A DNA stretch of 64,000 bases, taken from a virus. Shown in pieces: positions 8,435 through 41,732 of the stretch. The translations under genes were made by a program, and so were the position numbers. The notes beneath the pieces are model-generated. The model saw only the letters and a list, made by a program, of their open reading frames with translations. It was not told the origin of the DNA and searched no databases. The DNA lies in the IMG/VR virus record IMGVR_UViG_3300037391_000010, positions 32,001 to 96,000 of that record. One strand, written 5' to 3'. The first letter of the stretch is position 1; every line of letters starts with the position of its first letter.

Positions 8435-11269
8435 ATGGCTAACGAGAAAATTTCACAATTAAATAGCGGAAATCCCGCTCAAGGTGGAGACCTGCTCCTC
8501 ATTGCCCGCTCAGGGCAAAGCCTTTCCGTGACGGCGAGCAGCGTGGCGGCTCTGGCAGGTGGTGGGTTTAGCGGGTCGTTCGCCGATCTCACGTCAGGCG
8601 TCAATGCTTCGGCTATATTTACGGTGGGTAACGGTGGGTCAATCACATTTTCTGGTGTCGCATCCCCCGTCACCACGCAATTAGCTACAGCAGGAGCTTA
8701 CGCCATCCTCGGTGCATCGGCGGTTACGAACTCCGATGGTGCAAGCACAATCATCAGCAATGGGAACATTGGTTCCTACCCGACCAACACGATCACACCG
8801 GGAAGTCCGCCATGGACTCTTTCGGGTGCATCAGTCGTCACCGCCGTCGCTCAGAACCAGACGGATTTGGCTGCGGCGATTTCCTACTATCAGGGATTGG
8901 GGCCGGGGACTGCTCTGGGTGTAGCTCTCGATGGTCTGACCCTCACCCCCGGCGTTTACAGCGGCGGAACTTTCACCTTGAGTGGTGGAAATCTTACGCT
9001 GAATGGCGCGGGCACCTACGTATTCCTCGCATCAACCACGATTGGCCTGACGGGTGCTTCAACAATCACCCTAACGGGAGGTGCAACAGCCGCGAACGTT
9101 GTCTTTGTCGCGGGTAGTTCATTCACCGCAGCCGCCAACGCTGGCACCGTATTCAATGGCAACATCCTTGCAGCCGTTTCCATTACGGTTGACGGTGGAG
9201 CATATACAGGTCGCCTGCTCGCGAATACTGGGGCGGTCACCATCTCCACCGCTACCACTGTCACCTTGTCATCGGGCGTTCAACTCGGTATAGTCAATGC
9301 AAATCAAATTTACGGTGTGACTGTCAGCGGTACGGCTCCAACCGCAGGACAAGTTCTCACAGCTACGAGCGCGACAACGGCCAATTGGCAGACACCTAGC
9401 GGTGGAGGCGGTGGTGGGGCATTCAGTGCAATCACCGCAGGCACCAACACCGCAGCTTTGGTGGTGGGCACGGGCGGTACGCTCATGGTCAGTGGCACGG
9501 GCGTGATACAAGCAACTCAGATTCGAGCCGTTATTGTCAGCGGCACAGCCCCAACCACAGGTCAGGTACTCACAGCGACAGGTGCAACAACTGCGAATTG
9601 GCAGACGCCTTCGGGCGGCGGTGGGGCTCCGGGTGGTGCTAATGGCGCGGCTCAGTACAATTCCTTCAGCACGTTTGCTGGTTCGCCCGATGTCTTCATC
9701 GACAATCCCAGCGTAATCAATGGATCGTATACCACTCCGCTTCAGATCACAGGCAGCAGTGCTCCGGGTAGCCATTTCGCTTTCAACGGCAACGATATGC
9801 TGGCGGTATTTGTTTACGGCAACAATTCTGCACCGGGATTGCGCCTTACGCCATCGGGCGACACTCAAGAGGTTGACATCAACCTCGCAAACTCTTACGG
9901 CGAGACCGCACAGTTCACGCCCGGATTATTGGCGATCAACGGTCTGTTCGGCGGGTATATTTCGTTGGGTCCGAATTCGCCATTCAGCCCCGGAAATGGT
10001 TTTGGCTTCGCGAGATTTGAAGACGACAGTTCTAACTTCACGGAGATTGGTGGAGGTGTTACGGATTCGTGCGGTAGCATCTACATGTTTAACGAATATC
10101 AGGTTTCCACCAACGGCCATGCCGCTCTCACAGTTTATGGCGGCTATGGAGCCCACGATGACATCATGGCGTTGTTCCTGAATCAAGGCGCAACCACAAT
10201 CACTCCGTCTCTTGCATTCGCAGTTGGTTTTTCGGTCGATACAAACGGACACGTGACAGCAGGTAAGGCAGGTCAGGGAGCTTTCAATACAGATTTTGCG
10301 GGAACCATCGGACTTACATCTACATCGCAAGCAGTGACGTTCGGAGCACCGTTCACAGGGGCTAACCCGCCCATAGTAACCGTGACCGCCCTTTCCGATC
10401 CATCGCCTCTCGGCGGCGTGTGGATTACCAATCAAGGTGCAACGACTGCGTGGACAGGATTCACACTCAACGTCACTATGGCTCCCCCAGACTTCATTAT
10501 AGCCACTAGCGCCGAGGACAATTCCAGTCTTACCGTAACTATGACCCTTGCATCCAAGATAACAGGCTCCGTCGCCAGCGGCACCTTTGTTTCTGGTGAA
10601 GTGGTCACACAAACTTTATCGGGCGCAATGGCGTATCTCGTCAGCACGGCTCCTACGGCATCCGCTCCGATGTATATCTCGAACATTATGTATTTTGCAA
10701 CTGGTTCAGTAACCAGCGGCACGTTTACCCCGGGCGAATTGGTCACGCAGGCCAGCACGCTCGCAACGGCTTACCTGATGGGTGCGGTTCCTACGGGATC
10801 GAGTGACATATATCTCATGCTCGTCTCAGGAACCCCAGACTCATCGGATATTTGGACAGGGCAGCTTAGTGGAGCCACTTACACTCCGACCACCGCACCT
10901 GCTATCACGGGAACACCCGACTCGTCGGATATTTGGACAGGCGACACCAGCGGAGCTATTTACACCCCAACGTCCGCGCCTGTTGCCCCCGGTAGTTTCT
11001 CACCGGGCGGGTATGTCGGCAACTTGGTAGGTCTAACGAATTTGTCGAATCTGAATGGTTACCCGTATTGGGGAATACCCGATGGCATCTACTACGGCTA
11101 CCTCCTACCTGCGGGCACTTTTGCTGGGTTCAAAACCTATGGAACGAGCGGCACCACGTTGGTATTCATCGATCCAACACTTACAGGTCCGGGTCAGACG
11201 CTTGCTGTTGAAACAGGCGATGCTCTTTTCTCAGTGAACTTCAACTATCACGTAATCGGGCAGTCGTAA
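8435..11269 (+). CDS. Fibre protein with a DUF3494 ice-binding-like domain and internal repeats
   Basis: LATAGAYAILGASAVTN...LTPGVY...GGATAANVVF...YTGRLLA; same N-terminal anchor as 6356..7768. Confidence 0.8.
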   Translation: MANEKISQLNSGNPAQGGDLLLIARSGQSLSVTASSVAALAGGGFSGSFADLTSGVNASAIFTVGNGGSITFSGVASPVTTQLATAGAYAILGASAVTNSDGASTIISNGNIGSYPTNTITPGSPPWTLSGASVVTAVAQNQTDLAAAISYYQGLGPGTALGVALDGLTLTPGVYSGGTFTLSGGNLTLNGAGTYVFLASTTIGLTGASTITLTGGATAANVVFVAGSSFTAAANAGTVFNGNILAAVSITVDGGAYTGRLLANTGAVTISTATTVTLSSGVQLGIVNANQIYGVTVSGTAPTAGQVLTATSATTANWQTPSGGGGGGAFSAITAGTNTAALVVGTGGTLMVSGTGVIQATQIRAVIVSGTAPTTGQVLTATGATTANWQTPSGGGGAPGGANGAAQYNSFSTFAGSPDVFIDNPSVINGSYTTPLQITGSSAPGSHFAFNGNDMLAVFVYGNNSAPGLRLTPSGDTQEVDINLANSYGETAQFTPGLLAINGLFGGYISLGPNSPFSPGNGFGFARFEDDSSNFTEIGGGVTDSCGSIYMFNEYQVSTNGHAALTVYGGYGAHDDIMALFLNQGATTITPSLAFAVGFSVDTNGHVTAGKAGQGAFNTDFAGTIGLTSTSQAVTFGAPFTGANPPIVTVTALSDPSPLGGVWITNQGATTAWTGFTLNVTMAPPDFIIATSAEDNSSLTVTMTLASKITGSVASGTFVSGEVVTQTLSGAMAYLVSTAPTASAPMYISNIMYFATGSVTSGTFTPGELVTQASTLATAYLMGAVPTGSSDIYLMLVSGTPDSSDIWTGQLSGATYTPTTAPAITGTPDSSDIWTGDTSGAIYTPTSAPVAPGSFSPGGYVGNLVGLTNLSNLNGYPYWGIPDGIYYGYLLPAGTFAGFKTYGTSGTTLVFIDPTLTGPGQTLAVETGDALFSVNFNYHVIGQS

Positions 11270-29026: not shown

Positions 29027-30865
29027 TTAGCTGTGCTTCAGGGCGAATGCAATTTCCAGAGTCTCGTACCCGAGTGGGTTCGCGAACTGTGGTGTCCAAG
29101 AGCCAGCACCGATCTGGGTGCCGTACTCCACAAGGTAGTGGGCTTCAGAGCCGACCAGCTTGCCGTTGCTAATCATGTAGTAGCCGCCCTCGGTCACTAC
29201 TGCTGGGCTGCCCGCTACGGTGTAACCTGTCAGCGTGGAGTCTGTCCCGAGGTCGATCCCGTTGGCACTCTTCTGGAGACCAACGACGAAGACCGCATCC
29301 GCGCCAGTCGTGACGATTGGCGAGGTAGCAGCGGGGTTGCTGATCGTGATTGCTGTCGTTGCGCCGTCCACCGTTACCCCCGTCATGCCCGTAACATCGA
29401 GCACTTGGAAGTTGATGCCGCCATCGAACACGGGCTTACCAGCCGCGAGGTCGAGCGGAGCCACAACACCGTTCTGGTACACGGAGTTGAGGTTCACAGC
29501 ATAGGTGCCAGCGTTCGCCGAGTTGCAAACCCAGACATAGATGCATGGGTAGTACCCGTCGAGGTTCCAATCGCAGGTCTGCCACTGGGTTTCAGAACCC
29601 GGGGGAGACATGATCGGAGCGTAATCGCCGCCCGCAAGGACGATGCTCGCCACGAGTACCCAGTCGTTGACGCTACCGCCAGAACCCGGAGGATTCGTGG
29701 TGGTGGAGGTTTCGGCGTTGGTCACAGCCGCCGTCAGGGAGATCGCTCGACCAGTGAAGGTCGCAATACCCGTCTGGCTGAGGGTGACTGACCCCGTGCC
29801 TGCGATGTAGGTTCCAAAAACCACGCTGCCGTTGAGAATAGCCGACGCACCGCACACGAAGATGATGTTTCCAGCCTGTGCGCCGTTTAGCAGGGTCATG
29901 GTCGAGTTGACGTTCGACGTGAACGTGCTTCCAACCTGAATGACCCACTGGGCGTTCACGTTCCCACCCGCGTCGAAGTTGACGTTGCCAGAGGCAGCCA
30001 AATCCAGCGAGCTAGAAGCGGTGTACGTGCCCGGGGTGAGCGTCATTCCGCTTAACTGCGTTACGGTCGGGCCAGCGGCCAAACCTTTGTAGTAGCCGTA
30101 AGCAGTGTTTGCGTTCGCTTGCGCCTGAATTGCCAGCGGGGTGTTGATCTGGAACGATGCTGGAACGAAAGTTCCCGTGATCGACGTGCCGGGGGTCAAA
30201 CCCACGAGCCCGTTCACGATTGTCCAGATGCCCGCGCTTGTGATGGTCGAACCGGCGAGTACGGCAAACTGAGCCGCCACACCCAACTCCAATTCGATGC
30301 CCGACTCAGGAGTTACAGTCGAGTTGTCCGAGATTGTCGGGGTGGGAATGAAGTCGTTGATTCCCTGCAAGTAGCCGAATTCCGTGCTTGCGCCGTGAAG
30401 CTGATCGAACGGAGCGAGGCTCTTGAGGCCGAATGCGATGGCAATGAGCGTGTCGCCAGCCAATGGGCTGATGAAGACGTTATCCCCTTGGTTGTTCGAC
30501 GCCATGTTCGAGATTTTCTGGGCGTACTGGTAGGGGGTGCCGATTCCGACTTGCAGTTGCGCCGTGCCGATGTCTGCGGGAGGAGAACCGCCGCCTACCG
30601 CCGCCACACCGTTCGGGTTGAGAAGGTAAAGCTGGGTTGCGGAGGACTGGACGCACACGAACTCGCCGTTATTCCTCTGGTCGGCGAAGCCGCTTACGAC
30701 GAAAGCCTGACCTGCGTAGGCTCCAAGCGGCTGCGATGCCGAAGCTGCCCCGCCTGTGATTGTGCCAGTGTAAACCGTGGTGCCCGTGGCCGCTCCCTGA
30801 AAAGGACGAACGGCGGCGGCAACCTGTGTTAGCTCAAAAATTGGACCGAATGTTGGTTGACCCAT
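29027..30865 (-). CDS. Virion protein with a DUF3494 ice-binding-like domain
   Basis: LGVAAQFAVLAGSTIT...VGLTPGTSITG...TLTPGTY...FDAGGNVNAQWVIQV...LLNGAQAGNIIF...FTGRAIS. Confidence 0.85.
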   Translation of the reverse strand: MGQPTFGPIFELTQVAAAVRPFQGAATGTTVYTGTITGGAASASQPLGAYAGQAFVVSGFADQRNNGEFVCVQSSATQLYLLNPNGVAAVGGGSPPADIGTAQLQVGIGTPYQYAQKISNMASNNQGDNVFISPLAGDTLIAIAFGLKSLAPFDQLHGASTEFGYLQGINDFIPTPTISDNSTVTPESGIELELGVAAQFAVLAGSTITSAGIWTIVNGLVGLTPGTSITGTFVPASFQINTPLAIQAQANANTAYGYYKGLAAGPTVTQLSGMTLTPGTYTASSSLDLAASGNVNFDAGGNVNAQWVIQVGSTFTSNVNSTMTLLNGAQAGNIIFVCGASAILNGSVVFGTYIAGTGSVTLSQTGIATFTGRAISLTAAVTNAETSTTTNPPGSGGSVNDWVLVASIVLAGGDYAPIMSPPGSETQWQTCDWNLDGYYPCIYVWVCNSANAGTYAVNLNSVYQNGVVAPLDLAAGKPVFDGGINFQVLDVTGMTGVTVDGATTAITISNPAATSPIVTTGADAVFVVGLQKSANGIDLGTDSTLTGYTVAGSPAVVTEGGYYMISNGKLVGSEAHYLVEYGTQIGAGSWTPQFANPLGYETLEIAFALKHS

Positions 30866-31053: not shown

Positions 31054-31491
31054 ATGGGGCGTAAGAGACTCTTTGATAGTGAAAAGAAATGGTGCAATAA
31101 GTGCGAAAAATGGCTCCCCCTCGACGCCTTTGGGGAGAACAAACGCACCGCCAGCGGTCGCTCCTACTACTGCCGCACCTGCCACAACACCTATTGCGGA
31201 ACCTTCTGGACGAAAGTTCACACCTACGACGCCTTCCTCGAACGCGAATACCACATGAAGCCCGGACAGTACCTCGAACTCTGGCGGCATCAGGATAAAA
31301 AGTGCGCGGTCTGCGACGTGGCGTTGGTATTGTATAACAGGAAGACTTTGGTGGATTTCCGCGACGGACGAGTCCATGGGTTGTTGTGTGCCGACTGCAT
31401 GGAGGGCCTGAGGAAGCTGAAAATCTCCCCCGAGTTGCTTGCGAAAGCCATTCAGTATCTCAAACCAATTAGTATGGGAGTCACGCCGTGA
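31054..31491 (+). CDS. Endonuclease VII-like homing endonuclease, catalytically degenerate
   Basis: N-terminal CxxC...CxxC finger; QDKKCAVC...VDFRDGRVHGLLCADCM. Confidence 0.7.
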   Translation: MGRKRLFDSEKKWCNKCEKWLPLDAFGENKRTASGRSYYCRTCHNTYCGTFWTKVHTYDAFLEREYHMKPGQYLELWRHQDKKCAVCDVALVLYNRKTLVDFRDGRVHGLLCADCMEGLRKLKISPELLAKAIQYLKPISMGVTP

Positions 31492-31633: not shown

Positions 31634-32341
31634 GTGAGCGACATAGCACTCGTAATCATCTGTACGGGCACTGCCTACTGGAAATTCACCCAAGCGGCGG
31701 TCGATAGCGTGCGGGCGTTCTTCCCCGCCGATATTCTCCTGTTCACGGACAATCCCCAGCAATTCCCCGTCGCCAAGCAAGTGATGCACCCACACCCCGG
31801 TTGGCCGAACGCCACGCTGATGCGATTCCACACCATCCTGAGCCAACGAGAATGGCTGTCGCAATACAAATACGTTTTCTACATGGATGTATGTATGAAC
31901 ATGATGAGCCCAATTGCTGCGGCGGAAGTTCTTTCTGACGGCATCACGGCTTGCGTACACGCTTCGTTCGAGTTGAGCAAGGGGAAATATTGCACGCCAG
32001 AGGAGAATCCGAAGTCCACCGCCTACCTCAGCAAGAAGGACATCCGTAAGATGTACATCGGCGGTTTCTGGGGCGGGCCTACTGAGAAAATCTTGAGCAT
32101 GGCGGAAACGATCAGTAAGAGGATCGACATCGACAACGCCAACAACTTTATCGCCACGTGGCACGACGAATCGCACATCAACCGCTACCTCTACGAGTTC
32201 CCGCCAACAAAGGAACTGGATTTGCCGTACAACAACTGGACTAAGACCCCCAACATAAAAATCTGGCGCGTTCCCAAAGGCACGCCTAATCGTCCCGCCG
32301 TGAACGGGAAGCAGCCCTTCGAGCAGAGGAACCTGCCGTGA
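31634..32341 (+). CDS. Family 6 glycosyltransferase (ABO/alpha-1,3-Gal(NAc)T-like)
   Basis: ICTGTAY, LFTD, WPNATLMRF, YIGGFWGG, WHDESHINRY; GTG at 31634 is coupled to a 49-aa upstream ORF. Confidence 0.9.
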   Translation: MSDIALVIICTGTAYWKFTQAAVDSVRAFFPADILLFTDNPQQFPVAKQVMHPHPGWPNATLMRFHTILSQREWLSQYKYVFYMDVCMNMMSPIAAAEVLSDGITACVHASFELSKGKYCTPEENPKSTAYLSKKDIRKMYIGGFWGGPTEKILSMAETISKRIDIDNANNFIATWHDESHINRYLYEFPPTKELDLPYNNWTKTPNIKIWRVPKGTPNRPAVNGKQPFEQRNLP

Positions 32342-34104
32342 AAATTCTAGTGGCAATCTTGGCCTGTCATAGATACGTCGCAGGACGCGGAGCGGGCTGG
32401 AATTGGACGAACAAGGAAAAACACGCTGCCTACAGTTCCGTAAACTCGCAAATCAAGGCGTGTCGCGACACTTGGGTTAAAGATTTGGCGGCGTACCCCA
32501 ACGTTGATGTCAGATTCTTCTACGGGCGTGGAGCCAACCGTCAACCGTTACCTGACGAAGTGTTTTTGACTTGCGGGGATGATTACGCGAGCCTACCGCA
32601 CAAGACAAAAGCCATGTGTCAGTGGGCAATCGAGCATGGTTACGACTACATCTTCAAGACAGATGACGACACCTTTGTGTGGGTAGATCGTTTGATGAAT
32701 AGTGGGTTTGAGGGGCATGATTACGTCGGCGCTGTCAGCTACATCAGTAAATTCCCCTACGCTACGGGACTGGGATATTGGATAAGTGCAAAAGCGGCTC
32801 GATTGGTTGCCGCTGGGACTCCAACGGGTTCTATGGAAGATCACTGGGTGGGCGAGGTAATGCACAAGCACGGGATCGCTCACGTGTGTGACCACAGGTA
32901 TCGCAGTGTAGGTTCGAGATTCGTGGGGATCGGCGGCATGTTTAGTATGCCTGAATTTGCTTTACCAAACATCGCCATCCACCCATGCAACTCCGATATG
33001 TTGTATGCCTGCCATGTTCGCGCACATGAGACTGGCGTTGCTCCCAACGTGCCAATCAACCCAACAGCATTGGTCATCATAGCTACAGGCAGCCTGTACA
33101 GGCAACACGCTCGGGAGTTTATTGCGTCGGCAAAACAATTCTTCGTCCCGCACGACGTGGTGCTATTCACCGATGGCCCATCGGAGTTCGATGCTCCCGT
33201 GAAATTCAGACGAGAGAGCCTCGGCTACCCCCGAGCGACTTTGACACGCTACCACGCCATCTGGGAGGCGCGAGAGGTATTGTCAAAGTACGATCACATT
33301 TTCTACTCGGACGCGGATATGAAGTTCGTCGCTCCCGTAACAGCCGATGAGATTTTTTCCAATGGCATCACGGCTACCGAACATCCGGGATATGTTGGAT
33401 TGAAAGGGTCGCCAGAAAAGAATCCTAGTTCGGCGGCGTATTTACGAGATATTCGAACTTACTTCTGCGGCGGGTTCAATGGGGGTACGAGTAAAGCCTT
33501 TTTAGAGATGACCGACGTGATTCGGCAGGCGGTAGATGCGGATGATGCCAAGAACATCCTCGCCATTTGGCATGATGAGTCTCACTTAAACCGATACCTG
33601 TACGATCACCCGCCCGCGAAGGTTTTAACGCCCGCATTTTGCTACCCAGAGGAAGAACTTAGTTCCAATGGAAACGGATACTGGGGAAACATTTGGAAAC
33701 GGGCGCATCGCCATGGCATTGTCCCCAAACTGGTCTGCCTCAAAAAAGAATCACGCGAGAATAACGTCCCAACTCCAGTCCCCGTCCTAGTTGTCACGCC
33801 TCCCACACCTAAGCCCGTTGACCCGAGTGTATCGCGATGTAATCGTCACAATGTATACGCCTGTAGCGTATGCATCGCACGTGGTTGGGAATTTAGACAA
33901 TCAAATGCCCCCGCCCCCGCTCACACCGATGCGACTGTACGCGCTGCTTCACCGCAACAGACCACGCCCGCTCCGAGGATCGTTCCCCCCAACCCGCAGA
34001 TACAAAGAGCGGCATCGAGAGGTCTTACTGGGAACGTGAAACCGAGCCAAGGGGGGTTGTACCGCAACAATAGAGGCACAGACAATCAGAGGAAAATAAA
34101 ATGA
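32338..34104 (+). CDS. Bifunctional GT31-like (beta-1,3-galactosyltransferase-type) + GT6 glycosyltransferase with a Pro-rich basic tail
   Basis: DDYASLPHKT, FKTDDDTFV, EDHWVG; then IATGSLY, YSDADM, FCGGFNGG, WHDESHLNRY. Confidence 0.88.
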   Translation: MKILVAILACHRYVAGRGAGWNWTNKEKHAAYSSVNSQIKACRDTWVKDLAAYPNVDVRFFYGRGANRQPLPDEVFLTCGDDYASLPHKTKAMCQWAIEHGYDYIFKTDDDTFVWVDRLMNSGFEGHDYVGAVSYISKFPYATGLGYWISAKAARLVAAGTPTGSMEDHWVGEVMHKHGIAHVCDHRYRSVGSRFVGIGGMFSMPEFALPNIAIHPCNSDMLYACHVRAHETGVAPNVPINPTALVIIATGSLYRQHAREFIASAKQFFVPHDVVLFTDGPSEFDAPVKFRRESLGYPRATLTRYHAIWEAREVLSKYDHIFYSDADMKFVAPVTADEIFSNGITATEHPGYVGLKGSPEKNPSSAAYLRDIRTYFCGGFNGGTSKAFLEMTDVIRQAVDADDAKNILAIWHDESHLNRYLYDHPPAKVLTPAFCYPEEELSSNGNGYWGNIWKRAHRHGIVPKLVCLKKESRENNVPTPVPVLVVTPPTPKPVDPSVSRCNRHNVYACSVCIARGWEFRQSNAPAPAHTDATVRAASPQQTTPAPRIVPPNPQIQRAASRGLTGNVKPSQGGLYRNNRGTDNQRKIK

Positions 34105-34895
34105 ATGTGATTTTTATGGGGGGGCTAGGCAATCAGATGTTCCAATACGCTTTTGGTGTCTCCGTAGCAAAAGCGAAGGGCGAAGATGTGACGTTCACGT
34201 GGAACAAAGGAGAGTGGCGTGCGTATTCGCTCGAAGCATTCAATTGTCGGGTAAATATGGTGCCGACGTTCACTGGTCAACAGTTCAATGAGCCCGTGTT
34301 CGCATACGATCCCAGCGTGTATACGCGGCCAAAGGGATCATCGTTCATTGGTCACTGGCAGACGGAAAAATACTTCGATGCCCCGCTTGTGCGTCAGGAC
34401 ATGACGCTCCGCAACCCCGTGAGCGACAAGACGAATGCGGTCGCCGATGCGATTCAAGCTGCGGGAGAGAAGAGTGCGTTCCTGCATATCCGCAGGACGG
34501 ACTACCTGATTCCGAAAAACGTTGAATACCACGGCGGGCCCACACAGAGGTACTACAACGAAGCCATCGAGCGTATCCGTGCCGCCACGCCAGACGCCAA
34601 GTTCTTTGTATTCTCGGACGAGCCCGATTGGTGCAAAGCGACATACCCCGACTTCACAGTCGTGGATCACAATCCAATGGGTGTAAACGGCAAACCCGGA
34701 CAAGAACACGAGGACATCTATCTGATGAGTCTGTGCCGACACGCTGTGATCGCCAACAGTTCATTTAGCTGGTGGGGAGCATGGCTTGGAGACACTCAAC
34801 CATCTCGGTTGGTGTTCGCCCCGAATCGTTGGTTTGTAGTTAATCTTGAAAGCAAGGATATCGTCCCTGAGAGGTGGACTAAACTTGGCAACTGA
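34101..34895 (+). CDS. Family 11 alpha-1,2-fucosyltransferase-like
   Basis: GGLGNQMFQYA, GHWQTEKYF, HIRRTDY, FSDEPDWC, ANSSFSWWGAWL. Confidence 0.93.
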   Translation: MNVIFMGGLGNQMFQYAFGVSVAKAKGEDVTFTWNKGEWRAYSLEAFNCRVNMVPTFTGQQFNEPVFAYDPSVYTRPKGSSFIGHWQTEKYFDAPLVRQDMTLRNPVSDKTNAVADAIQAAGEKSAFLHIRRTDYLIPKNVEYHGGPTQRYYNEAIERIRAATPDAKFFVFSDEPDWCKATYPDFTVVDHNPMGVNGKPGQEHEDIYLMSLCRHAVIANSSFSWWGAWLGDTQPSRLVFAPNRWFVVNLESKDIVPERWTKLGN

Positions 34896-35868
34896 TCTCA
34901 TTACTGGCATGGCATCTGGCTACACGTGGCAAACATTGCAGCCGTTCGTCCTTTCCCTGCGACGTTCTGGGTACGGGGGGCGGTGCGTCTTGATCTTCGG
35001 TGAAGGCCGTAAGGAGGAAGTCGGTCATGCTCCGGGGTACGAGCCGGGTGCTTATGCCGCAAAGGGCTACGTACACCCCGTGGACGCTGCGGGCGACAAA
35101 GAAGCATTGTACTCCAAGCTACTAGAGTACGGAGTTGAAGCGCACGATATCGGCACGTTTGACGAGCACCCGATCATGGCTCGATTTCCAGTCATAGCCG
35201 ATTTGATCGATAGCATTCAACCTCGTTACGTGCTGAGCGTAGACACCAAGGACATCGTGTTTCAATATGACCCGACGTTCTGGCTGGAACAGTATCTCGG
35301 AGACAAAAGCGTTTGTGTCGTATCAGAAGGCTCGACATACCAGCAAAGTCTCGGCAACGCTAACAACATCCGGGCGGCGTTTGGCGACGACATGTACGAA
35401 TCTATGAAAGACGAGATGGTGCTCAACGCTGGCGTAATCGCGGGTCTGCCAGAAGCAGTCAGCAAGCTGCACCGCGATGTGCATGAGCTTGCGCTAACCG
35501 ATCTGCGGTTAAAGGAAGCACAACCGGGGTACAAGGAAATGGTCGCCGATCAAACAGCGATGAACATACTTCTACGGCGAAACCCCTATCGCGACATGAC
35601 GCTTTTTGCTACTCAACATAATGGCTTTGTCGCGGAATACCACCACCTGCATTACAGTTGGGCTGGCGAAGAGCGTAAGTTTGAAATAGACCTCGCGGAA
35701 AACGTCAGCAGTGGTCAGCGCCCTGATTTGCCGTTGGATGAATACAACTACTATCGAGATGGGATCATTTACCCGGGTGGTAGTGAAATCCCGTTTGCGA
35801 TCTTCCATCAGTACATGGTCAACGGTGATTGGTGGGTGGACATCAAGGAAAAATACAAGGAAGAATAA
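34885..35868 (+). CDS. GT-A fold nucleotide-sugar transferase, family uncertain
   Basis: VDTKDIVFQ-x-DP, LNAGVIAG, DQTAMN, IFHQY; TTG start inferred. Confidence 0.65.
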   Translation: MATDLITGMASGYTWQTLQPFVLSLRRSGYGGRCVLIFGEGRKEEVGHAPGYEPGAYAAKGYVHPVDAAGDKEALYSKLLEYGVEAHDIGTFDEHPIMARFPVIADLIDSIQPRYVLSVDTKDIVFQYDPTFWLEQYLGDKSVCVVSEGSTYQQSLGNANNIRAAFGDDMYESMKDEMVLNAGVIAGLPEAVSKLHRDVHELALTDLRLKEAQPGYKEMVADQTAMNILLRRNPYRDMTLFATQHNGFVAEYHHLHYSWAGEERKFEIDLAENVSSGQRPDLPLDEYNYYRDGIIYPGGSEIPFAIFHQYMVNGDWWVDIKEKYKEE

Positions 35869-35883
35869 TTATGAGGATCGCCC

Positions 35884-36564
35884 ATGCGAGTTAGTATCGT
35901 TATTCCGCTGTATAACCTACAGGATTTTGTAGCGCAGACCATTGAATCGGCGCTCGGTCAGACGTATGGGGACTCTGAAGTCATCGTTGTCAATGACGGG
36001 TCTACGGATGGCAGTCTTGCTGTGGCGCAGCGGTACGAAGGCCGTATCAGGTTGATAAATCAGAAGAATGTAGGGTTGAACGCATCACGTAATGCGGGGG
36101 TCGCTGTGTCCTCGGCTGAATTCCTGCTCCCCTTGGACGCTGATGATTGGCTATCGCCAACGTACCTCGAACAGACTATTCCTTTAATGATTGAGGGGGT
36201 TGGTGTGGTTTCTACGGATATGGACATGTTTGGCGTGGTCAATCGATTGCAGCCGATTGGACACCCCACCCTCCACGTCCAGAAATGGGCCAACACGATG
36301 CCCTATTGTTCGCTAATCCGACGCACGGCGTTTGACCAAGCTGGCGGTTATAGCTCCAACCCCGACATTCAAGCATACGGGGACTGGAACCTTTGGATCA
36401 GCATTTTGAAACGCGGATGGCGGGTTGCTCCGCTTCCGAAGCCGTTGTTTCACTATCGAGTGCGCCCCACATCGATGCGCTCTGAGGTGGAACCAAAACA
36501 TGCGGAGATGGCGCTTGCCATTCGCCGCAATCACCCAGACCTGTTTAGGCCGGAGGAAAGATGA
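35884..36564 (+). CDS. Family 2 glycosyltransferase
   Basis: VSIVIPLYN, VVNDGSTD, RNAG, PLDADD, YGDWNLW. Confidence 0.92.
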   Translation: MRVSIVIPLYNLQDFVAQTIESALGQTYGDSEVIVVNDGSTDGSLAVAQRYEGRIRLINQKNVGLNASRNAGVAVSSAEFLLPLDADDWLSPTYLEQTIPLMIEGVGVVSTDMDMFGVVNRLQPIGHPTLHVQKWANTMPYCSLIRRTAFDQAGGYSSNPDIQAYGDWNLWISILKRGWRVAPLPKPLFHYRVRPTSMRSEVEPKHAEMALAIRRNHPDLFRPEER

Positions 36565-37553
36565 AGATACTCGTTACTGGGGGTGCTGGCTTTATCGCCA
36601 GTCACTTTATTGATCGCGTTCTACGCACCACGGATTGGCACGTCACAGTCGTTGACCAATTTACATACGCTTCGAATGGCCTGACTCGGCTGAAGGAAAT
36701 CGGGGCGTATGACAATTCACGAGTTAAAATCCACGTCCGTGACTGTGCGCGTCCTCTCGGCTCCTGCTTGGAAGATGAAATAGGCCACATCGACTACTTG
36801 CTACACATGGCGGCTGGCACGCATGTGGACAACTCCATAGCCTGCCCGAGAGATTTTGTCGAAGCGAACATTTTCGGCACCTTTGAGATGCTGGAATACG
36901 CTCGCCGCATACAGGGGCTCCAGAAATTCGTCTATTTCTCCACGGATGAAGTTTACGGCCCAGCAGCCGTTGGTCAGAAGTTCGAGGAGTGGGACAGATA
37001 CAACTCCTGCAACCCCTACTCCGCTACCAAGGCGGGTGGTGAGGAGCTTTCTCTCGCATGGGCTAACACTTACGGCGTACCTGTGGTTATCACTCACACC
37101 ATGAACGTGATCGGTGAAAGGCAGCACCCAGAAAAATTCGTGCCGAGGGTTGTTCGCAGCGTACTTGCGGGCAAGGAAATTCAGATACACACAGACCCCA
37201 AAACGGGAAAACCGGGAAGCCGCCACTACCTGCATTGCCGAGATGTGTCGGACGCCGTAATGTTCTTGCTACCTCGTGCCGAGATTCGCCAGAAGTACAA
37301 CATCGCTGGTGAGGTGGAGATTTCCAATCTCGAAGTTGCACAGGGTATCGCCGAAGTTCTGGGTAAGAAACTCAAGTATAAGCAGGTGAATCCGACCGAC
37401 GTAAGACCGGGGTTTGATGTGCGGTACGGTCTCAGCGGCAAAAAGATGGCGGACATGGGTTGGAAGCCCGCCCATAGCTTCAAAGAAAACATTAAAGACC
37501 TCGTGGAATGGATGGTCAGACCGGAGAATGAACATTGGCTGAAGATTGGGTAG
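36561..37553 (+). CDS. NDP-glucose 4,6-dehydratase (RmlB-like extended SDR)
   Basis: TGGAGFIA, AAGTHVDNS, STDEVYG, YSATK, QHPEKFVP. Confidence 0.88.
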   Translation: MKILVTGGAGFIASHFIDRVLRTTDWHVTVVDQFTYASNGLTRLKEIGAYDNSRVKIHVRDCARPLGSCLEDEIGHIDYLLHMAAGTHVDNSIACPRDFVEANIFGTFEMLEYARRIQGLQKFVYFSTDEVYGPAAVGQKFEEWDRYNSCNPYSATKAGGEELSLAWANTYGVPVVITHTMNVIGERQHPEKFVPRVVRSVLAGKEIQIHTDPKTGKPGSRHYLHCRDVSDAVMFLLPRAEIRQKYNIAGEVEISNLEVAQGIAEVLGKKLKYKQVNPTDVRPGFDVRYGLSGKKMADMGWKPAHSFKENIKDLVEWMVRPENEHWLKIG

Positions 37554-38125
37554 CAAAATGGTTCGCTGATGGTGCGGAAGAAAACTTACGGCTGGGGTAT
37601 TCCCTAAGCTCGGACAGCGTTGTGTTCGACGTGGGGGCGTATGACGGCGGCTGGTCTGCTGATTTAATTCGGCACACTGGTGTCCATCCTCGACTATTTG
37701 TAGTTGAGCCTCTGGAAGGGATGTCCCAAGTTGCCGCCCAACGTTTGAAGGGCGAGAACGTCACCATCATCAATGCGGCGTTGTCGGATCGAACAGGCGA
37801 GGCTCAAATCCATGATTACAGCCACGAATCCAGTATGCACAGGCCCGGGAATCGCACGATAAAAACGGTGGATGCTGCGGAAGTTGTGAGAGCTTTTCCC
37901 CGTATAGACCTGATGAGCATCAACGTTGAGGGGCACGAGTTCGTGATTGTCAAAAGGCTTCTGGATGCGGGGCTCATCCAGATCATAGAGAATTTGCAGG
38001 TGCAGTTTCACACTTTTGTCCCCAACGCAGTAGAGATGCGCGACGAGCTTAGGGCACGGCTGGCTGTAACTCACACGGAAGTTTACTGCTATCCGTTTGT
38101 TTGGGAAAATTGGAGAAAGAAATGA
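37535..38125 (+). CDS. FkbM-family methyltransferase
   Basis: VFDVGAY-x-G, VEP, IDLMSINVEGHE, LQVQFH. Confidence 0.85.
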   Translation: MAEDWVAKWFADGAEENLRLGYSLSSDSVVFDVGAYDGGWSADLIRHTGVHPRLFVVEPLEGMSQVAAQRLKGENVTIINAALSDRTGEAQIHDYSHESSMHRPGNRTIKTVDAAEVVRAFPRIDLMSINVEGHEFVIVKRLLDAGLIQIIENLQVQFHTFVPNAVEMRDELRARLAVTHTEVYCYPFVWENWRKK

Positions 38126-38726
38126 ACGAACTCTGCACACTCGGGGCAAAGCACAGGACGGATAAACATAACGCCAAAAACTTCCCTGAAGAAGGCGATC
38201 TGACATCCGTCTATCACGGTCTTCTGAAGGATCGTAAAGATGATGTTCGGAAGGTTCTGGAGATCGGGATTGGGCACACCGTAGCGGGACGAGAAGGTTG
38301 GATGGGGACTATAGACGACTACCATGCGGGGGCCAGTCTGTTCATGTGGGAAGAGTATTTCCCTAACGCGGAGATTTTTGCGCTGGATATTGTCGTTGAG
38401 GCGCTCATCAATCAAGGCCGCATTCGTTCTTTTTGGTGCGACCAGAGCAGCGAAAGCTCTCTACGAGAAATTATCCCCACGCTCGGAAGTGATTTCGATC
38501 TCATTATAGACGACGGTTCTCACATGGTCGATCATCAAATCCTGACGGCCAACACCTTTATGCCCCTGCTTGGGTCGAATGGATTTACGTCATCGAAGAC
38601 ATCCACCTGAAAGATAGGGAGATGATAAAGGACGGAATCAAGTACCCGTCTGAGTTTAGAGAAGTCATAGACACGGAAGGTCTGATCGGCGACCTAATGC
38701 TGATCTTTAAGAAGGAGAGTGTATGA
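38122..38726 (+). CDS. Class I SAM-dependent (sugar O-)methyltransferase, 1-nt frameshift at ~38582
   Basis: VLEIGIG, GASL-x-MWEEYFPNA, CDQS, FDLIIDDGSH; IYVIED continues in the -1 frame to a TGA overlapping the next ATG. Confidence 0.8.
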
Positions 38727-39700
38727 GTAACGTAATGGTGACAGGCGCGGGCGGGTTCATCGGGCATCATCTGGTCAAGCGGCTGAAAGCAGAAGGGCAC
38801 TTCGTTCGCGGCATCGATATCAAATACCCCGAGTTCGAAAAGACGGCAGCGGATGAGTTCTGGATTTACGACTTGCGCTGGGATCATAACGCCATCCACG
38901 CCTTCAATGGTGAGCCATTCTGCATTCGTGAGTTCGATGAGGTTTACAACTTAGCGGCAGACATGGGCGGCATCGGCTACATCACGCAATACCTCGCCGA
39001 TATCGCTCGCAACAATATCTTGATTAACGTCAACATGTTGGAGGCGGCACGGAGATTCGATGTCAAGAGCTACCTCTACACGTCTTCGGCCTGCGTGTAC
39101 AACCAAGACAAGCAGCGGGACGCCAACGTGGTGCCGCTGAAAGAAGAGGACGCCTATCCCGCGTTACCAGAACGTGGATACGGCTGGGAGAAACTGTTCG
39201 CCGAGCAGATGTGCGAATACTATCAGCACGATTACAATCTCGACATCCGTATGGTGAGATTCCATAATGTCTACGGCCCGCTCGGGACATACGACGGCGG
39301 TAAGGAGAAGTCCCCCGCAGCCATCTGCCGTAAGGTTGCGCTGGCAGACAATGGCAGCGAGATCGAAGTGTGGGGTGACGGGCAGGCTACCCGCAGCTAC
39401 ATGTACATCGATGACTGCGTTGAGGGACTGAGACGCATCATGGCCTCGGGCTACCAGAAGCCACTGAACCTCGGCACCGACGAGCTTGTCACAATAGACG
39501 GTCTGGTGGACATCGTGTGCGGTATCGCTGGGAAGACCTTGGAGAAGAAACATGATCTCACCAAGCCGCAGGGTGTACGCGGTCGCAACAGCGACAACAA
39601 CCTGCTCCGTAATGTCCTCGGGTGGGAACCAAAGACCTTACTTGCTGACGGACTGCAACCGACATACGAGTGGATCAAAGATCAAGTCCACGGGAGCTAG
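38723..39700 (+). CDS. GDP-mannose 3,5-epimerase-like SDR
   Basis: TGAGGFIG, NLAADMGGIG, SSACVY, LKEEDAYPA-x-PERGYGWEKL, RFHNVYGP-x-GT-x-DGGKEKSPAAICRK, PQGVRGRNSDN. Confidence 0.85.
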   Translation: MSNVMVTGAGGFIGHHLVKRLKAEGHFVRGIDIKYPEFEKTAADEFWIYDLRWDHNAIHAFNGEPFCIREFDEVYNLAADMGGIGYITQYLADIARNNILINVNMLEAARRFDVKSYLYTSSACVYNQDKQRDANVVPLKEEDAYPALPERGYGWEKLFAEQMCEYYQHDYNLDIRMVRFHNVYGPLGTYDGGKEKSPAAICRKVALADNGSEIEVWGDGQATRSYMYIDDCVEGLRRIMASGYQKPLNLGTDELVTIDGLVDIVCGIAGKTLEKKHDLTKPQGVRGRNSDNNLLRNVLGWEPKTLLADGLQPTYEWIKDQVHGS

Positions 39701-39702
39701 GG

Positions 39703-40392
39703 ATGGCCGATAAGGTTTCCATCGTAATTCCCTGCTACAATCACGCACAATATTTGCCGCAGTCTATTGAGTCGGCACTCGCCCAAGACTACGACAACTT
39801 TGAAGTGATCGTGGTAAATGATGGTTCCACGGATAATTCGCTCGCTGTCGCTACGAGTTACGGGGAAAGAATCAAGGTTGTATCGCAGGCAAACCAAGGT
39901 CTCTCCCCCGCTAGAAACGCGGGAATTTCCGCTGCCACGGCTGAGTTCATCCTTCCTCTTGACGCCGATGATTGGGTCGAACCTGCCTATTTGAAAAAGA
40001 CGGTGCCCCTGATGCAGGAGCGTGTGGGTGTAGTTGGCACGCATACTGCCTGCTTCGGTTTGGGCGATCACGTCTGGCGTACATTTTCACCGACTATGGA
40101 GCAACTTAAAAATGATAACTCCATCCCCGTCTGTTCGCTGATTAGACGTAGTGTGCTTCAAGAAGTCGGCGGGTACAACCCCGCTCTGAGCGGGTATGAC
40201 AAAGAACACATCGGATACGAGGACTGGAACCTCTGGATTGACATCATGAAACGGGGGTGGAAAGTTGTCATCATCTCCGAGGCATTATTTCACTATCGCG
40301 AAAAGCAGGGTTCGATGAGCAGAAGGGCGAATAGACCAAAATTGATGGCAAAAATCAGGTCACTTCATCCTGATTTGTGGCCGAGGGGTTAA
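39703..40392 (+). CDS. Family 2 glycosyltransferase, paralogue of 35884..36564
   Basis: VSIVIPCYN, VVNDGSTD, PLDADD, YEDWNLW. Confidence 0.92.
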   Translation: MADKVSIVIPCYNHAQYLPQSIESALAQDYDNFEVIVVNDGSTDNSLAVATSYGERIKVVSQANQGLSPARNAGISAATAEFILPLDADDWVEPAYLKKTVPLMQERVGVVGTHTACFGLGDHVWRTFSPTMEQLKNDNSIPVCSLIRRSVLQEVGGYNPALSGYDKEHIGYEDWNLWIDIMKRGWKVVIISEALFHYREKQGSMSRRANRPKLMAKIRSLHPDLWPRG

Positions 40393-40393
40393 A

Positions 40394-40762
40394 ATGAACC
40401 AAGTTCTCGTAGAGTCGCTGAGACAGAAACAAGACCCATTACAACGTCCTCCGTGGAGTCAGTCATGGAGACGCGACCCGATTACCTCCGAGGAGATTCA
40501 GCAAGCACTTCAAGACCCCGCACTAGACGAACAGGGCCGACCATGGACGAAACATTGCGGTTCTTGGACGAGGGATGAAACATCCAGCCGCAAGAGTCAT
40601 GTCTACAGGATCGCCTATTTCGTGAAGCACCGCGAGGCCGCTGCACCAATTACCCTGAAAGCCAGCGGTTCGATGTTCGATGGCTATCATCGGTTGGCGG
40701 CTGCTATATACTGTGGGGATGAGTATATTGCCGTAGGAGAAGGCTTAGCTGCGGGAGTATAA
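40394..40762 (+). CDS. ParB/sulfiredoxin-like N-terminal domain protein
   Basis: PITL...FDGYHRLAAA. Confidence 0.6.
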   Translation: MNQVLVESLRQKQDPLQRPPWSQSWRRDPITSEEIQQALQDPALDEQGRPWTKHCGSWTRDETSSRKSHVYRIAYFVKHREAAAPITLKASGSMFDGYHRLAAAIYCGDEYIAVGEGLAAGV

Positions 40763-40889: not shown

Positions 40890-41732
40890 TTACCCGTTCT
40901 GCCCGAACAGGTAAGCCAAAATGTTTGTCCCCACGGTGTTTCCAGTTACGTTCACGCGGAGATAGTTGAAGAACAAGCAACTCGGTGCCCACATAATAAC
41001 CTTCGTGGCAGCCGAGGCCCACACGCCCGTACCGTCGTATGAAATTTCGGATTGCCCGACGATGGGAGTTGCCGAGTTGAGGTTTCCAGTCAGGTTTGCC
41101 CCGATGTTTGGCGTACCAGTGGTGTTGGATACTGGGGGAATCGTCTGATTGTTCAGCCATGCGTAGAGAGTAAATGTCTGATTGACGTTGATCGGGCCGT
41201 TGGCGACGGCAAGGTTGCCGAACGTCTGGCCTGAACCATACATTGGATTCTGGAGGACATACGCCCCGCCATTGAGACTGACGTACACGTTGTAGCCTGT
41301 GGCATACGGCCCGCCAGTGGTGGTATCGGGGCCCGGAGCCCCAACTAAAAGAGTGTTACCCGCGCTCACCGCGAGTGTGGCAATGCTACTGGCGATGGTC
41401 TCACCTTGCAAATTGACGTAGGTGAGCTTCACCCCGTAAGTGGCGGCGGGGTATACATACGCCTGCTGGTCACCGTTGTTGCTGGGGGTGAACTGACTGA
41501 GAACCGGTGTGGAAGGAGCGGCGATCTGTGTGGCAAGGTTGTCGATATTGACGTTGGGATCGTTCGAAGCTTCGACCCAGATGTTGGCTAACGCTGGGAT
41601 TGCCACTGTAGCCCCTGAGGAATTCGTAGCGGTGATCTCCACTGAGGACGACACGAAATTCGAGGTGTTCCGCCATGCCCCGTTCGCGGCGGCGAGGGCT
41701 GTGTTGAGGATCAGGTTATTGACAATCTGCAT
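40890..41732 (-). CDS. Virion protein with an Ig/FN3-like insert
   Basis: WVEASNDP...[APSTPVL...TYVNLQGET...ATGYNVYVS]...NYLRVNVT; SD AAGGAG. Confidence 0.6.
   Translation of the reverse strand: MQIVNNLILNTALAAANGAWRNTSNFVSSSVEITATNSSGATVAIPALANIWVEASNDPNVNIDNLATQIAAPSTPVLSQFTPSNNGDQQAYVYPAATYGVKLTYVNLQGETIASSIATLAVSAGNTLLVGAPGPDTTTGGPYATGYNVYVSLNGGAYVLQNPMYGSGQTFGNLAVANGPINVNQTFTLYAWLNNQTIPPVSNTTGTPNIGANLTGNLNSATPIVGQSEISYDGTGVWASAATKVIMWAPSCLFFNYLRVNVTGNTVGTNILAYLFGQNG

Follow-up and report, generated by a model that had tools for sequence, protein, structure and literature searches.

Putative 'LPS/cell-surface' clusters of T4-like cyanophages (P-SSM2, P-SSM5, S-CAM9, ACG-2014f and S-SCSM1) carry a minimal DXD-type GT6 glycosyltransferase (32-36% identity) with GT11 nearby, and in S-SCSM1 GMD, Fcl and GDP-mannose 3,5-epimerase (GME) lie beside an alpha-1,2-fucosyltransferase (PMC9602691). 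The locus described here differs from these clusters in its setting, a jumbo phage with a soil Acidobacteriota host, and in its content: GT6 is present as two domains, one of them fused to GT31, GME occurs alone without GMD or Fcl, an RmlB-like gene and methyltransferases are present, and the flanks encode fast-evolving fibre-like proteins. The E. coli O86 O-antigen, a blood-group B mimic made by WbnJ, WbnK and WbnI with gmd and fcl, proceeds through a matching series of three steps (beta-1,3-Gal, then alpha-1,2-Fuc by GT11, then alpha-1,3-Gal by GT6) and has its own GDP-L-sugar supply. O86 differs in being built on undecaprenyl-PP with Wzx/Wzy, in using a GT2 rather than a GT31 beta-galactosyltransferase, and in obtaining fucose via GMD/Fcl where this locus would obtain L-Gal via GME.

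PaGT6 of Parachlamydia acanthamoebae and BoGT6a of Bacteroides ovatus are assayed bacterial blood-group A synthases (PMC3516806) that share fold, acceptor residues and catalytic residues with the GT6 domains predicted in the window (the whole 64,000-nucleotide stretch of DNA analysed). BoGT6a has A-G-G where the window domains have I-G-G and C-G-G, and it carries NXN and a membrane-binding tail where the first window GT6 has D-V-C. PaGT6 shares the minimal DXD architecture and the clade of the window GT6 and transferred GalNAc only onto 2'-fucosylated acceptors (PMC3516806). Virus-encoded soluble GTs, sugar-nucleotide enzymes and methyltransferases also work in the cytoplasm in mycobacteriophage virion glycosylation (Freeman et al. 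2023, cited in PMC12619734), PBCV-1 and mimivirus; the GT families there differ from those here. Phage DNA glycan hypermodification clusters pair a GT-A enzyme with a sugar epimerase, as here, but adjoin 5mYOX or ThyS genes (bioRxiv 10.1101/2023.12.21.572611), neither of which adjoins this operon.

Results

The window comes from a 155-kb jumbo-phage fragment from soil, related to the Tunturiibacter (Acidobacteriota) phage Tunturi_5, which has neither GT6 nor GT11. The original prediction of a phage origin was borne out. A tightly packed sugar-building operon of 11 genes without gaps (g01 to g11, all on the + strand) spans 31634-40762 in the order GT6, GT31+GT6 fusion, GT11, retaining-type GT-A, GT2, RmlB-like, FkbM methyltransferase, second methyltransferase, GME, GT2 and a small ORF. 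Pfam, TIGRFAM-type profiles and fold matches located all of the predicted enzymes in place and on this strand. At 32338, 34101, 36561 and 38122 the stop codon of one gene overlaps or directly adjoins the start codon of the next (ATGA/GTGA type), and a 1-nt gap separates g10 from g11 at 40394. This codon arrangement is consistent with translational coupling of the operon genes and agrees with the coupling claimed for the adjacent GT genes. TM segments were found in none of the 11 proteins.

g01 (31634-32341) encodes a minimal GT6 of the ABO-family retaining alpha-1,3-transferase type (PF03414, 70.7 bits against a cut-off of 25; BoGT6a, 86.8 bits) and starts at a GTG with the ribosome-binding site AGAGGGA. 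The acceptor His and catalytic WHDES are present, I-G-G occupies ABO 266-268, and D-V-C stands where D-x-D is expected; lacking the second Asp of DXD, the enzyme may be weak or inactive. g02 (32338-34104) is the GT31-type and GT6 fusion (PF01762, 35.9 bits against 23; PF03414, 74.3 against 25), with a GT31-type domain bearing a DDD motif at residues 1-235, a GT6 domain with D-A-D, C-G-G and H-P-G at residues 240-475, and a basic-ended tail with a Pro-rich linker and a C-x2-H...C-x2-C motif. The GT31 assignment is firmer because the six best fold matches were all GT31 enzymes (Z 17.5-21.3, including B3GalT6 at 21.3, B3GalT5 at 20.6 and C1GalT1 at 19.3), the seventh match reaching only 14.2. GT31 enzymes may transfer GlcNAc or GalNAc instead of Gal. 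g03 (34101-34895) belongs to GT11, the alpha-1,2-L-fucosyltransferase family (PF01531, 77.4 bits against 23.9; phrog_2644 over its full length, E 1e-47), and has the motifs HIRRTDY, FSDEPDW and SSFSWWGAWL. In alignment YIGGF and FCGGF line up with positions 266-268 of mammalian ABO-family sequences, and both GT6 domains keep x-G-G (L-G-G in GTA, A-G-G in BoGT6a), the acceptor His and the catalytic Glu. The acceptor His and WHDES Glu were retained in every aligned phage GT6 homologue. The alignment upheld the A-type (Gly) donor pocket claimed for both domains, with the fucosyl-acceptor His also kept, x-G-G being only a correlate of GalNAc use.

g04 (34912-35868) is an unclassified GT with no Pfam match that models as a glycosyltransferase of retaining-type GT-A fold (AF2 pLDDT 87.7; Foldseek E 3e-6 to GTA/GTB). 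Its VIA Z scores were 14.3 for LH3 glucosyltransferase, 14.0 for mimivirus R699 and 13.1 for LgtC, with further fold-level likeness to chlorovirus PBCV-1 A64R (Z 11.8), and its family (473 relatives) shows no variation at the D-x-x-D of residues 111 and 114. g05 (35884-36564; PF00535, 105 bits; no TM segment) and g10 (39703-40392; PF00535, 133 bits for the frame 39670-40392) are soluble GT2 paralogues with 50% identity. g06 (36561-37553) is an SDR resembling RmlB-type NDP-glucose 4,6-dehydratases (TIGR01181, 263 bits, under the cut-off of 365); its best PDB matches were all dTDP-glucose 4,6-dehydratases at <=193 bits, among them 6vlo, a 326-residue chain labelled 'putative dTDP-D-glucose 4,6-dehydratase'. 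No phage-encoded reductase for its product was found. g07 (37535-38125) is an FkbM methyltransferase (TIGR01444, 52.5 bits against 37.7; PF05050) and a probable sugar O-methyltransferase. g08 (38122-38722; phrog_21658) is a class-I SAM methyltransferase in which three-frame comparison with an intact, 92%-identical homologue in L006 revealed a 1-nt deletion near 38580. The open frame stops at 38610 and the last 40-odd residues lie in another frame, to about 38722. Both expected methyltransferases were thus located, but the second (38122-38610) is broken by a frameshift. g09 (38723-39700), also an SDR, matched plant GME structures 2c59 and 8sg0 at 311-313 bits against 106 bits for the next-best family and has intact catalytic positions (SSAC, YGxEK, GGxEK), which identify it at sequence level as a true GDP-mannose 3,5-epimerase. 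g11 (40394-40762), a 122-aa ORF of unassigned function starting 1 nt past the g10 stop, is not conserved in L006 and is probably part of the operon unit.

We evaluated gene linkage across phage GT6 loci. GT11 lay within 10 kb of GT6 in 69/80 phage loci (within 3 kb in 59/80) and accompanied GT6 in 46 of the 80 best bacterial GT6 loci. In 13 phage loci, with shuffled gene order, a GT31-like gene was found no more than 3 kb from GT6; the fusion seen in g02 recurred in P0002-P0005 and, in permuted order, in P0008 and P0009. The trio of GT31, GT11 and GT6 recurs, shuffled and fused, in unrelated phages, including a complete 102-kb phage (G005) that carries the same module without a related capsid protein. 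This kept adjacency, together with the shuffling and fusion, supports the claim that the three act jointly on one glycan. In close relatives the precursor genes were 92-93% identical, against just 41-51% for the transferases, and island gene content varied. Module neighbours in relatives were replication genes (G005) and an SNF2 helicase (G003) rather than structural genes, a placement that runs counter to a virion target.

The 'complete enzyme logic' claimed for a fucosylated A antigen did not hold: the 155-kb fragment contains no GMD, Fcl or nucleotidyltransferase, and encodes GME instead. The closest module (L005/G001; 74, 63 and 53% identity) carries GMD (505 bits) and Fcl (222 bits), while G000, G002 and G003 have GME and no GMD. 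GME or GMD/Fcl occurred in 42/69 GT11-bearing loci and in 0/11 without GT11, the latter often short (Fisher p 1e-4, related and duplicate contigs counted in). GME and GMD/Fcl were rarely found in one locus (OR 0.14, p 0.01, again counting related and duplicate contigs). As the operon has GME and no GDP-fucose route, and its sister has GMD and Fcl in a swap of precursor genes, GT11 here probably transfers L-galactose (or L-gulose) rather than L-fucose. Fucosyltransferases have been reported to accept GDP-L-Gal (PMC8787198).

Both flanks encode fibre-like proteins on the - strand. A 612-aa protein (29027-30865; PF11999, 86.8 bits), whose beta-helix domain is Ice_binding-like (DUF3494), is followed by a strong terminator (29005-28986). 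It shares 50% identity with its G002 counterpart, against 98% for the major capsid protein; this fast-evolving protein is a candidate glycan acceptor or partner. Paralogues of its domain lie at 8435-11269 and from 63232 onward. Downstream of the operon, a 280-aa Gly/Ala/Asn/Thr-rich protein (40890-41732) is likewise fast-evolving (57% identity to G002). Ser/Thr-rich structural proteins are present (19-24% S+T), but these are ordinary fibre-like proteins and the richness is no indication of glycosylation. Immediately 5' of the operon, an endonuclease VII-type gene (31054-31491, +; PF02945, 39.7 bits) has no match in G002 and may represent a mobile endonuclease at the edge of the island.

Discussion

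We propose, with a probability of about 0.5, that the operon is a phage-encoded cytoplasmic assembly line for a glycan ending in an H/A-like branched cap. We infer the sequence of steps, the donors, the linkages and the acceptor as follows. Two conserved enzymes fed from host pools would supply precursors, with the RmlB-like dehydratase converting NDP-glucose to an NDP-4-keto-6-deoxyhexose that host enzymes probably complete. Seven soluble glycosyltransferase domains would then assemble the oligosaccharide. The GT31 domain would add a beta-1,3-linked Gal (or HexNAc), GT11 an alpha-1,2 L-sugar, probably L-galactose over L-fucose, onto that Gal, and the GT6 domains an alpha-1,3 GalNAc-type sugar onto the same Gal. 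The GT2 pair and g04 would form underlying or initiating linkages and the FkbM enzyme would O-methylate a sugar.

Virion proteins are modestly favoured as acceptor, at somewhat under even odds, over host envelope glycoconjugates at roughly a third, with others including DNA making up the rest. Virion proteins are preferred because the phages lack lipid-carrier or export genes: no Bac_transf, WecA-type, Wzx or Wzy gene was found among five phage records, including two complete ones. The absence of TM segments is shared with bacterial O-antigen transferases. Remodelling of the host surface, a long-standing proposal for the cyanophage 'LPS' clusters, is a possible, though doubtful, alternative here. 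Soluble GTs would modify host undecaprenyl-linked LPS, EPS or capsule intermediates at the inner membrane, and export by host flippase, polymerase and ligase would alter the surface, leading to superinfection exclusion or avoidance of grazers and phages. The nearest bacterial GT6/GT11 pairs sit in cell-surface polysaccharide clusters, annotation assigns cell-wall modification to cyanophage clusters that combine GMD, Fcl, GME and an alpha-1,2-FucT (PMC9602691), Tunturiibacter hosts have abundant extracellular polysaccharide (PMC11924767), and the transferases have diverged in an O-antigen-like way. However, genes for an initiating transferase, flippase or polymerase and Gtr-type genes are missing from the phages, two complete genomes included, and phage GT6 is minimal, lacking the domain at the C-terminus by which bacterial O-antigen GT6 enzymes bind the membrane. 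Acidobacteriota are also absent from the best 80 bacterial GT6 loci, so that nothing points to a host pathway that the phage enzymes could join.

A literal blood-group A antigen (Gal-beta, then alpha-1,2-L-fucose, then alpha-1,3-GalNAc) appears unlikely. Host GDP-fucose could supply GT11, and GME would then serve another transferase. The GT11 membership of g03, the A-type donor motif and fucosyl-acceptor residues of GT6, and GDP-fucose synthesis by the sister phage G001 fit this structure, but the window phage and its two nearest relatives have GME and no GMD/Fcl, no further operon enzyme belongs to a family typically using GDP-L-sugars, and GME and GMD/Fcl act as alternatives beside GT11. Even less probable is that the genes have no common product, being accessory transferases with differing acceptors whose ABO-like family set is coincidental; the dissimilar island content of relatives, the defective DXD of g01 and the frameshift in g08 would suit this, whereas the tight coupling of the operon, repeated GT31-GT6 fusion in both orders and GT6-GT11 adjacency in most phage loci argue against it. 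Glycosylation of hydroxymethylated bases of the phage genome is very improbable, as, despite mono- to tri-hexose phage-DNA glycans made by GT-A enzymes needing partner epimerases (bioRxiv 10.1101/2023.12.21.572611) and a ParB-like DGxHRxAAA-type motif in g11 (no family match), no 5mYOX/C5-methyltransferase or ThyS-like gene of the known pathways flanks the operon, a ThyS-family gene is absent from G000, G002 and complete G005 with the same module and tens of kb off in G003 and G001, and GT11 and GT6 are families adapted to galactosides as acceptors.

By family assignment, the operon core comprises the three enzyme families of human ABO(H) blood-group synthesis, and the contrast between its conserved precursor genes and its diverged transferases is O-antigen-like. 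The proposed phage-encoded assembly line would yield a branched cap resembling blood-group H/A antigens in architecture.

Operon structure and gene content

The sugar-building operon (window 31634-40762, + strand) contained every gene listed in the original prediction. In 5' to 3' order, g01 (31634-32341) encodes a minimal GT6 protein, g02 (32338-34104) a GT31-type domain joined to a second GT6 domain, a Pro-rich linker, a Cys/His motif and a basic tail, g03 (34101-34895) a GT11 protein and g04 (34912-35868) a protein without a Pfam family. These are followed on the same strand by g05 (soluble GT2), g06 (RmlB-like 4,6-dehydratase), g07 (FkbM methyltransferase), g08 (38122-38722; second methyltransferase), g09 (GDP-mannose 3,5-epimerase, GME), g10 (a soluble GT2 paralogue 50% identical to g05) and g11 (40394-40762; 122 aa), which starts 1 base past g10. 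As successive genes overlap or abut, we treated them as one unit; the sole seeming gap (38610-38723) corresponds to the last part of g08, which is read in another frame. The ten best PDB matches of g06 were all RmlB-type and its score with the NCBIfam equivalog TIGR01181 was 263 bits, under the cut-off of 365. A promoter and terminator scan gave only background signal save for one terminator past the upstream fibre-like gene, and tblastn of the GT2 enzymes and g04 against phages returned no informative annotated relatives.

Both predicted methyltransferase genes were present, the second of them in frameshifted form. Three-frame comparison with an intact, 92% identical homologue (locus L006) indicated that g08 is missing 1 nt near 38580, and this deletion puts the conserved C-terminal part (the ...YVIEDIH... 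region; window 38560-38722) out of frame. The frameshift would be either a sequencing or assembly error or a real, recent pseudogene. The last gene, g11, is coupled to g10 and carries a ...FDGYHRLAAA... motif that recalls ParB/sulfiredoxin-type domains; it had no family match and was not conserved in G002, a near-identical phage record.

GT6 domains and their active-site residues

Both GT6 domains scored well over the gathering score of 25 for PF03414 (g01 70.7 bits, g02 74.3 bits), with PDB matches to BoGT6a at 86.8 bits and to human GTA/GTB at about 74 bits, and on sequence both can be placed in CAZy family GT6. Active-site residues were read from alignments to BoGT6a and to two mammalian ABO-family proteins from the homologue search. 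The catalytic Glu (GTA E303) lies in WHDESH in g01 and g02 alike, and the acceptor His (GTA H233) in VHASF in g01 and EHPGY in g02, aligned to LHPGF of the mammalian ABO relatives. Alignment confirmed the glycine that had been proposed at the ABO-268-like position (YIGGF, FCGGF), with ABO positions 266-268 reading I-G-G in g01 and C-G-G in g02. The same positions read A-G-G in BoGT6a and in both mammalian sequences, and GTA has L-G-G. The donor-position classes in an alignment of 69 phage GT6 domains were AGG (23), QGC (19), CGG (16) and AAA (5). The NCBIfam 'family 6 glucosyltransferase' model gave 120-138 bits, far under its cut-off of 250, and was therefore left out of the donor prediction.

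The metal-binding motif is D-A-D in the g02 domain and D-V-C in g01 (window 31930-31940, residues about 102-104). The change is conserved as D-I-C in the 74% identical g01 orthologue of locus L005 (10001-10700), which argues that it is not an error, and the other 67 of the 69 aligned domains keep D-x-D. In BoGT6a, substitution at the second position of the motif is tolerated (PMC3516806), and g01 may thus have retained activity. PaGT6 belongs to the same minimal D-x-D clade and has been assayed; it uses H trisaccharide or 2'-fucosyllactose as GalNAc acceptor and shows no activity on LacNAc (PMC3516806).

Fold predictions for g04 and the g02 N-terminal domain

A g04 model built from 46 relatives (pLDDT 87.7) matched GTA/GTB in Foldseek at E 3e-6. 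VIA-align Z scores were 14.3 for the LH3 glucosyltransferase, 14.0 for mimivirus R699, 13.1 for LgtC, 12.9 for GTB and 11.8 for PBCV-1 A64R, and by its modelled fold g04 is a retaining-type GT-A. The N-terminal domain of g02 scored 35.9 bits with PF01762 (cut-off 23) in a match spanning residues 74-121 only, and its DDD motif is present as TDDDT. The six top fold matches of its model (pLDDT 79.6) were all GT31 (Z of 21.3 for B3GalT6, 20.6 for B3GalT5, 19.4 for CHSY3, 19.3 for C1GalT1, 18.8 for B3GNT2 and 17.5 for Manic Fringe), with the seventh-best match at 14.2. Pfam, motif and predicted fold together point to CAZy family GT31. With these two fold checks, the glycosyltransferase domains of the operon number seven. 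The C-terminal extension of g02 (window 33780-34104, residues about 480-588) is conserved in two other GT31/GT6 fusion proteins (P0002 and P0005) and consists of the Pro-rich linker, a possibly zinc-binding C-x2-H...C-x2-C motif and a basic ...YRNNRGTDNQRK tail; the extension might serve for docking.

GT11 and the nature of its sugar donor

The g03 protein scored 77.4 bits with PF01531 (cut-off 23.9) and contained all three GT11 family motifs, which we take to be HxRRxDY, an FSDD-type motif and SxFSWW; Pfam and motifs thus assign it to CAZy family GT11. A phmmer search of g03 against PDB matched no solved structure.

The g09 protein matched plant GME structures at 311-313 bits over residues 4-323, with the next SDR family at 106 bits, and retained the catalytic Cys, Tyr-x3-Lys and Lys when aligned to the plant enzyme (SSAC, YGWEK, GGKEK). 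Full-length similarity and catalytic positions therefore identify it, on sequence grounds, as a GDP-mannose 3,5-epimerase. No further SDR, no GMD/Fcl (the GDP-fucose route) and no nucleotidyltransferase were found in the 155-kb fragment, which is about 48% complete. GMD/Fcl were also absent from G002 and from the related phage G003, which carry GME instead (92% and 85% identical to g09, respectively). The closest sister module (L005 in phage record G001; GT6a 74%, fusion 63% and GT11 53% identical) has at its end a true GMD (505 bits, cut-off 415) together with a GDP-L-fucose synthase, which scores 222 bits against solved Fcl. Among 80 phage GT6 loci, a set that includes related contigs and short loci, GME or GMD/Fcl was present in 42 of the 69 GT11-bearing loci vs 0 of the 11 without GT11 (p 1e-4). 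In this same set, with its related contigs and short loci, GME occurred together with GMD/Fcl in just 2 loci (odds ratio 0.14, p 0.01). Fucosyltransferases accept GDP-L-galactose, and GME combined with a promiscuous fucosyltransferase yields L-galactosides (PMC8787198). From this tolerance and the occurrence of GME without GMD/Fcl we infer that L-galactose (6-hydroxy-fucose), possibly L-gulose, would occupy the H-antigen fucose position, with host-supplied GDP-L-fucose being a possible alternative. The operons of relatives (L017 9346-21763, L005 9357-21792) add a TylCIII-like NDP-hexose C-methyltransferase and that of G003 further adds a UDP-glucose/GDP-mannose dehydrogenase; with these extra genes the sister glycans may contain branched-chain and uronic sugars.

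Linkage of GT6, GT11 and GT31 genes

Linkage was assessed in ±10-kb loci around 80 phage GT6 genes, 79 from an IMG/VR profile scan and one from the first scan. GT11 was present in 69 of the 80 loci and lay within 3 kb of GT6 in 59, while a GT31-like gene lay within 3 kb in 13. Bacterial GT6 loci contained GT11 in 46 of 80 cases; none of these 80 was from Acidobacteriota, and GT31 with GT6 was also seen in Planctomycetota. The trio occurred in shuffled orders, including GT31-GT11-GT6 (L017), GT31-GT6-GT11-GT6 (L008), GT11-GT31-GT6-GT31 (L012) and GME-GT6-GT31-GT31-GT11 (L033), and GT31/GT6 fusions were found in one order in P0001-P0007 and in the other in P0008 and P0009. Recurrent linkage, shuffling and fusion argue that GT31, GT11 and GT6 act on one product. 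The original prediction of a complete ABO-type enzyme logic is thus supported as regards these three families belonging together and unsupported as regards GDP-L-fucose supply, the fragment (about 48% complete) having GME and no GMD/Fcl.

The source phage and divergence between close relatives

The record that holds the window is 155,417 bp (window, bases 32001-96000) and is 48% complete by CheckV estimate. Its major head protein (window 2216-3175) shares 71% identity with the one encoded by Tunturiibacter phage Tunturi_5, a myovirus of 309 kb from Acidobacteriota of Arctic soil (PMC11924767), and more distantly resembles that of Bacillus phage G. Neither GT6 nor GT11 was found when looked for in Tunturi_5, and this together with the head-protein kinship places the operon in an accessory island carried by a soil jumbo phage; through the same kinship the host is predicted to be an acidobacterium. 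Among 50,697 phage records, megablast returned no match to the operon, and contigs of the closest protein homologues were taken from the IMG/VR scans. Close carriers of the module were G002 (head protein 98% identical) and G003 (84%; a complete 300-kb genome), and it was also present in phages that lack a related capsid gene, G005 (complete, 102 kb) being one. The last 12-20 head-protein residues are wholly different among the window, G003 and Tunturi_5 (window 3130-3175; locus L083; locus L001 20900-20960), the remainder being 71-84% identical, and these C-terminal tails differ between operon-bearing and operon-free phages without an interpretable pattern. A 1422-aa SNF2-type helicase of G003 (L017 4054-8322, - strand) is apparently interrupted by intein and LAGLIDADG homing-endonuclease domains.

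Comparison with G002 separated precursor genes from transferases. The RmlB-like gene, g08 and GME were 92-93% identical whereas identity among the transferases was only 41-51% (75% for GT2a). On either side of the operon lies an opposite-strand gene for a fibre-like protein, and these two shared 50% and 57% identity with G002. Bacterial O-antigen loci typically combine conserved sugar-nucleotide genes with transferases that have been replaced or have diverged, and the contrast seen here suggests diversifying selection on the phage glycans. An Ice_binding-like (DUF3494) beta-helix region is common to three proteins (29027-30865, - strand; 8435-11269 and 63232-63999, + strand) which probably form a virion fibre family, and the copy adjoining the operon (29027-30865) is the one with 50% identity to its G002 counterpart. 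The gene directly upstream of the operon (31054-31491), absent from G002, encodes an endonuclease VII-type protein whose N-terminus is rich in Cys; it may be a mobile endonuclease at the edge of the island. PHROGs and Pfam searches of the flanking genes returned nothing for most.

Candidate targets of the predicted glycan

Virion proteins may be the target of the glycan. The enzymes are self-contained and cytoplasmic, with no transmembrane segment in any of the 11 operon proteins, the genes on both sides are fibre-like and evolve fast, with one encoding the Ice_binding-like beta-helix also seen in the structural module, and mycobacteriophages and giant viruses offer precedents. Ser/Thr content and N-x-S/T counts singled out no acceptor. 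Position within a virion module was tried as a general argument and dropped, the module lying beside the intein-containing SNF2 helicase in G003 and beside helicase, exonuclease and endolysin genes in G005.

The glycan may instead be placed on the host envelope or surface, as every bacterial analogue is a surface-polysaccharide enzyme and the module adjoins replication genes, not structural ones, in G003 and G005. Searches with positive controls for PF02397, PF00953, PF01943 and PF04932 (Bac_transf/WecA-type initiators, Wzx and Wzy/WaaL) found none in five module-bearing records, two of them complete. By sequence, the module appears to lack the initiating phosphoglycosyltransferase, Wzx, Wzy/WaaL or Gtr membrane components of an O-antigen or seroconversion system. 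DNA hypermodification is unlikely, as known phage DNA-glycan clusters adjoin 5mYOX or ThyS genes (bioRxiv 10.1101/2023.12.21.572611) and a ThyS-family search gave no match in the window's own record, G002 or the complete G005, and in G003 and G001 a gene at a long distance from the operon; a Tet_JBP search gave no match, its control being equally silent.

A bolder possibility is that the virion fibres or capsid of soil jumbo phages carry a methylated glycan, blood-group-like and containing L-galactose, whose transferase genes would diversify as rapidly as bacterial O-antigen genes, together with the adjoining fibre genes. We give this a probability of roughly 0.3.

Relation to known systems and significance

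Cyanophages have for years been known to carry GT6 together with GT11 (PMC3516806), and GMD, Fcl, GME and an alpha-1,2-fucosyltransferase are listed together in cyanophage S-SCSM1 (PMC9602691). The present analysis adds the alternation of GME with GMD/Fcl, a D-x-C form of GT6, a frameshift in the second methyltransferase gene and, between near-identical phages, a divergence like that of O-antigen loci. The range of the GT6/GT11 'blood-group' module, marine cyanophages and animal-associated bacteria, would now extend to jumbo phages of soil Acidobacteriota. GT31, the third family of the human pathway, is a recurrent partner that is at times fused to GT6, which bears on the origin of the vertebrate ABO enzyme set. 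The swap of GME for GMD/Fcl predicts L-galactose vs L-fucose caps. If virion coating is true, these phages would possess a 'serotype' system by which adsorption is tuned or the virion shielded.
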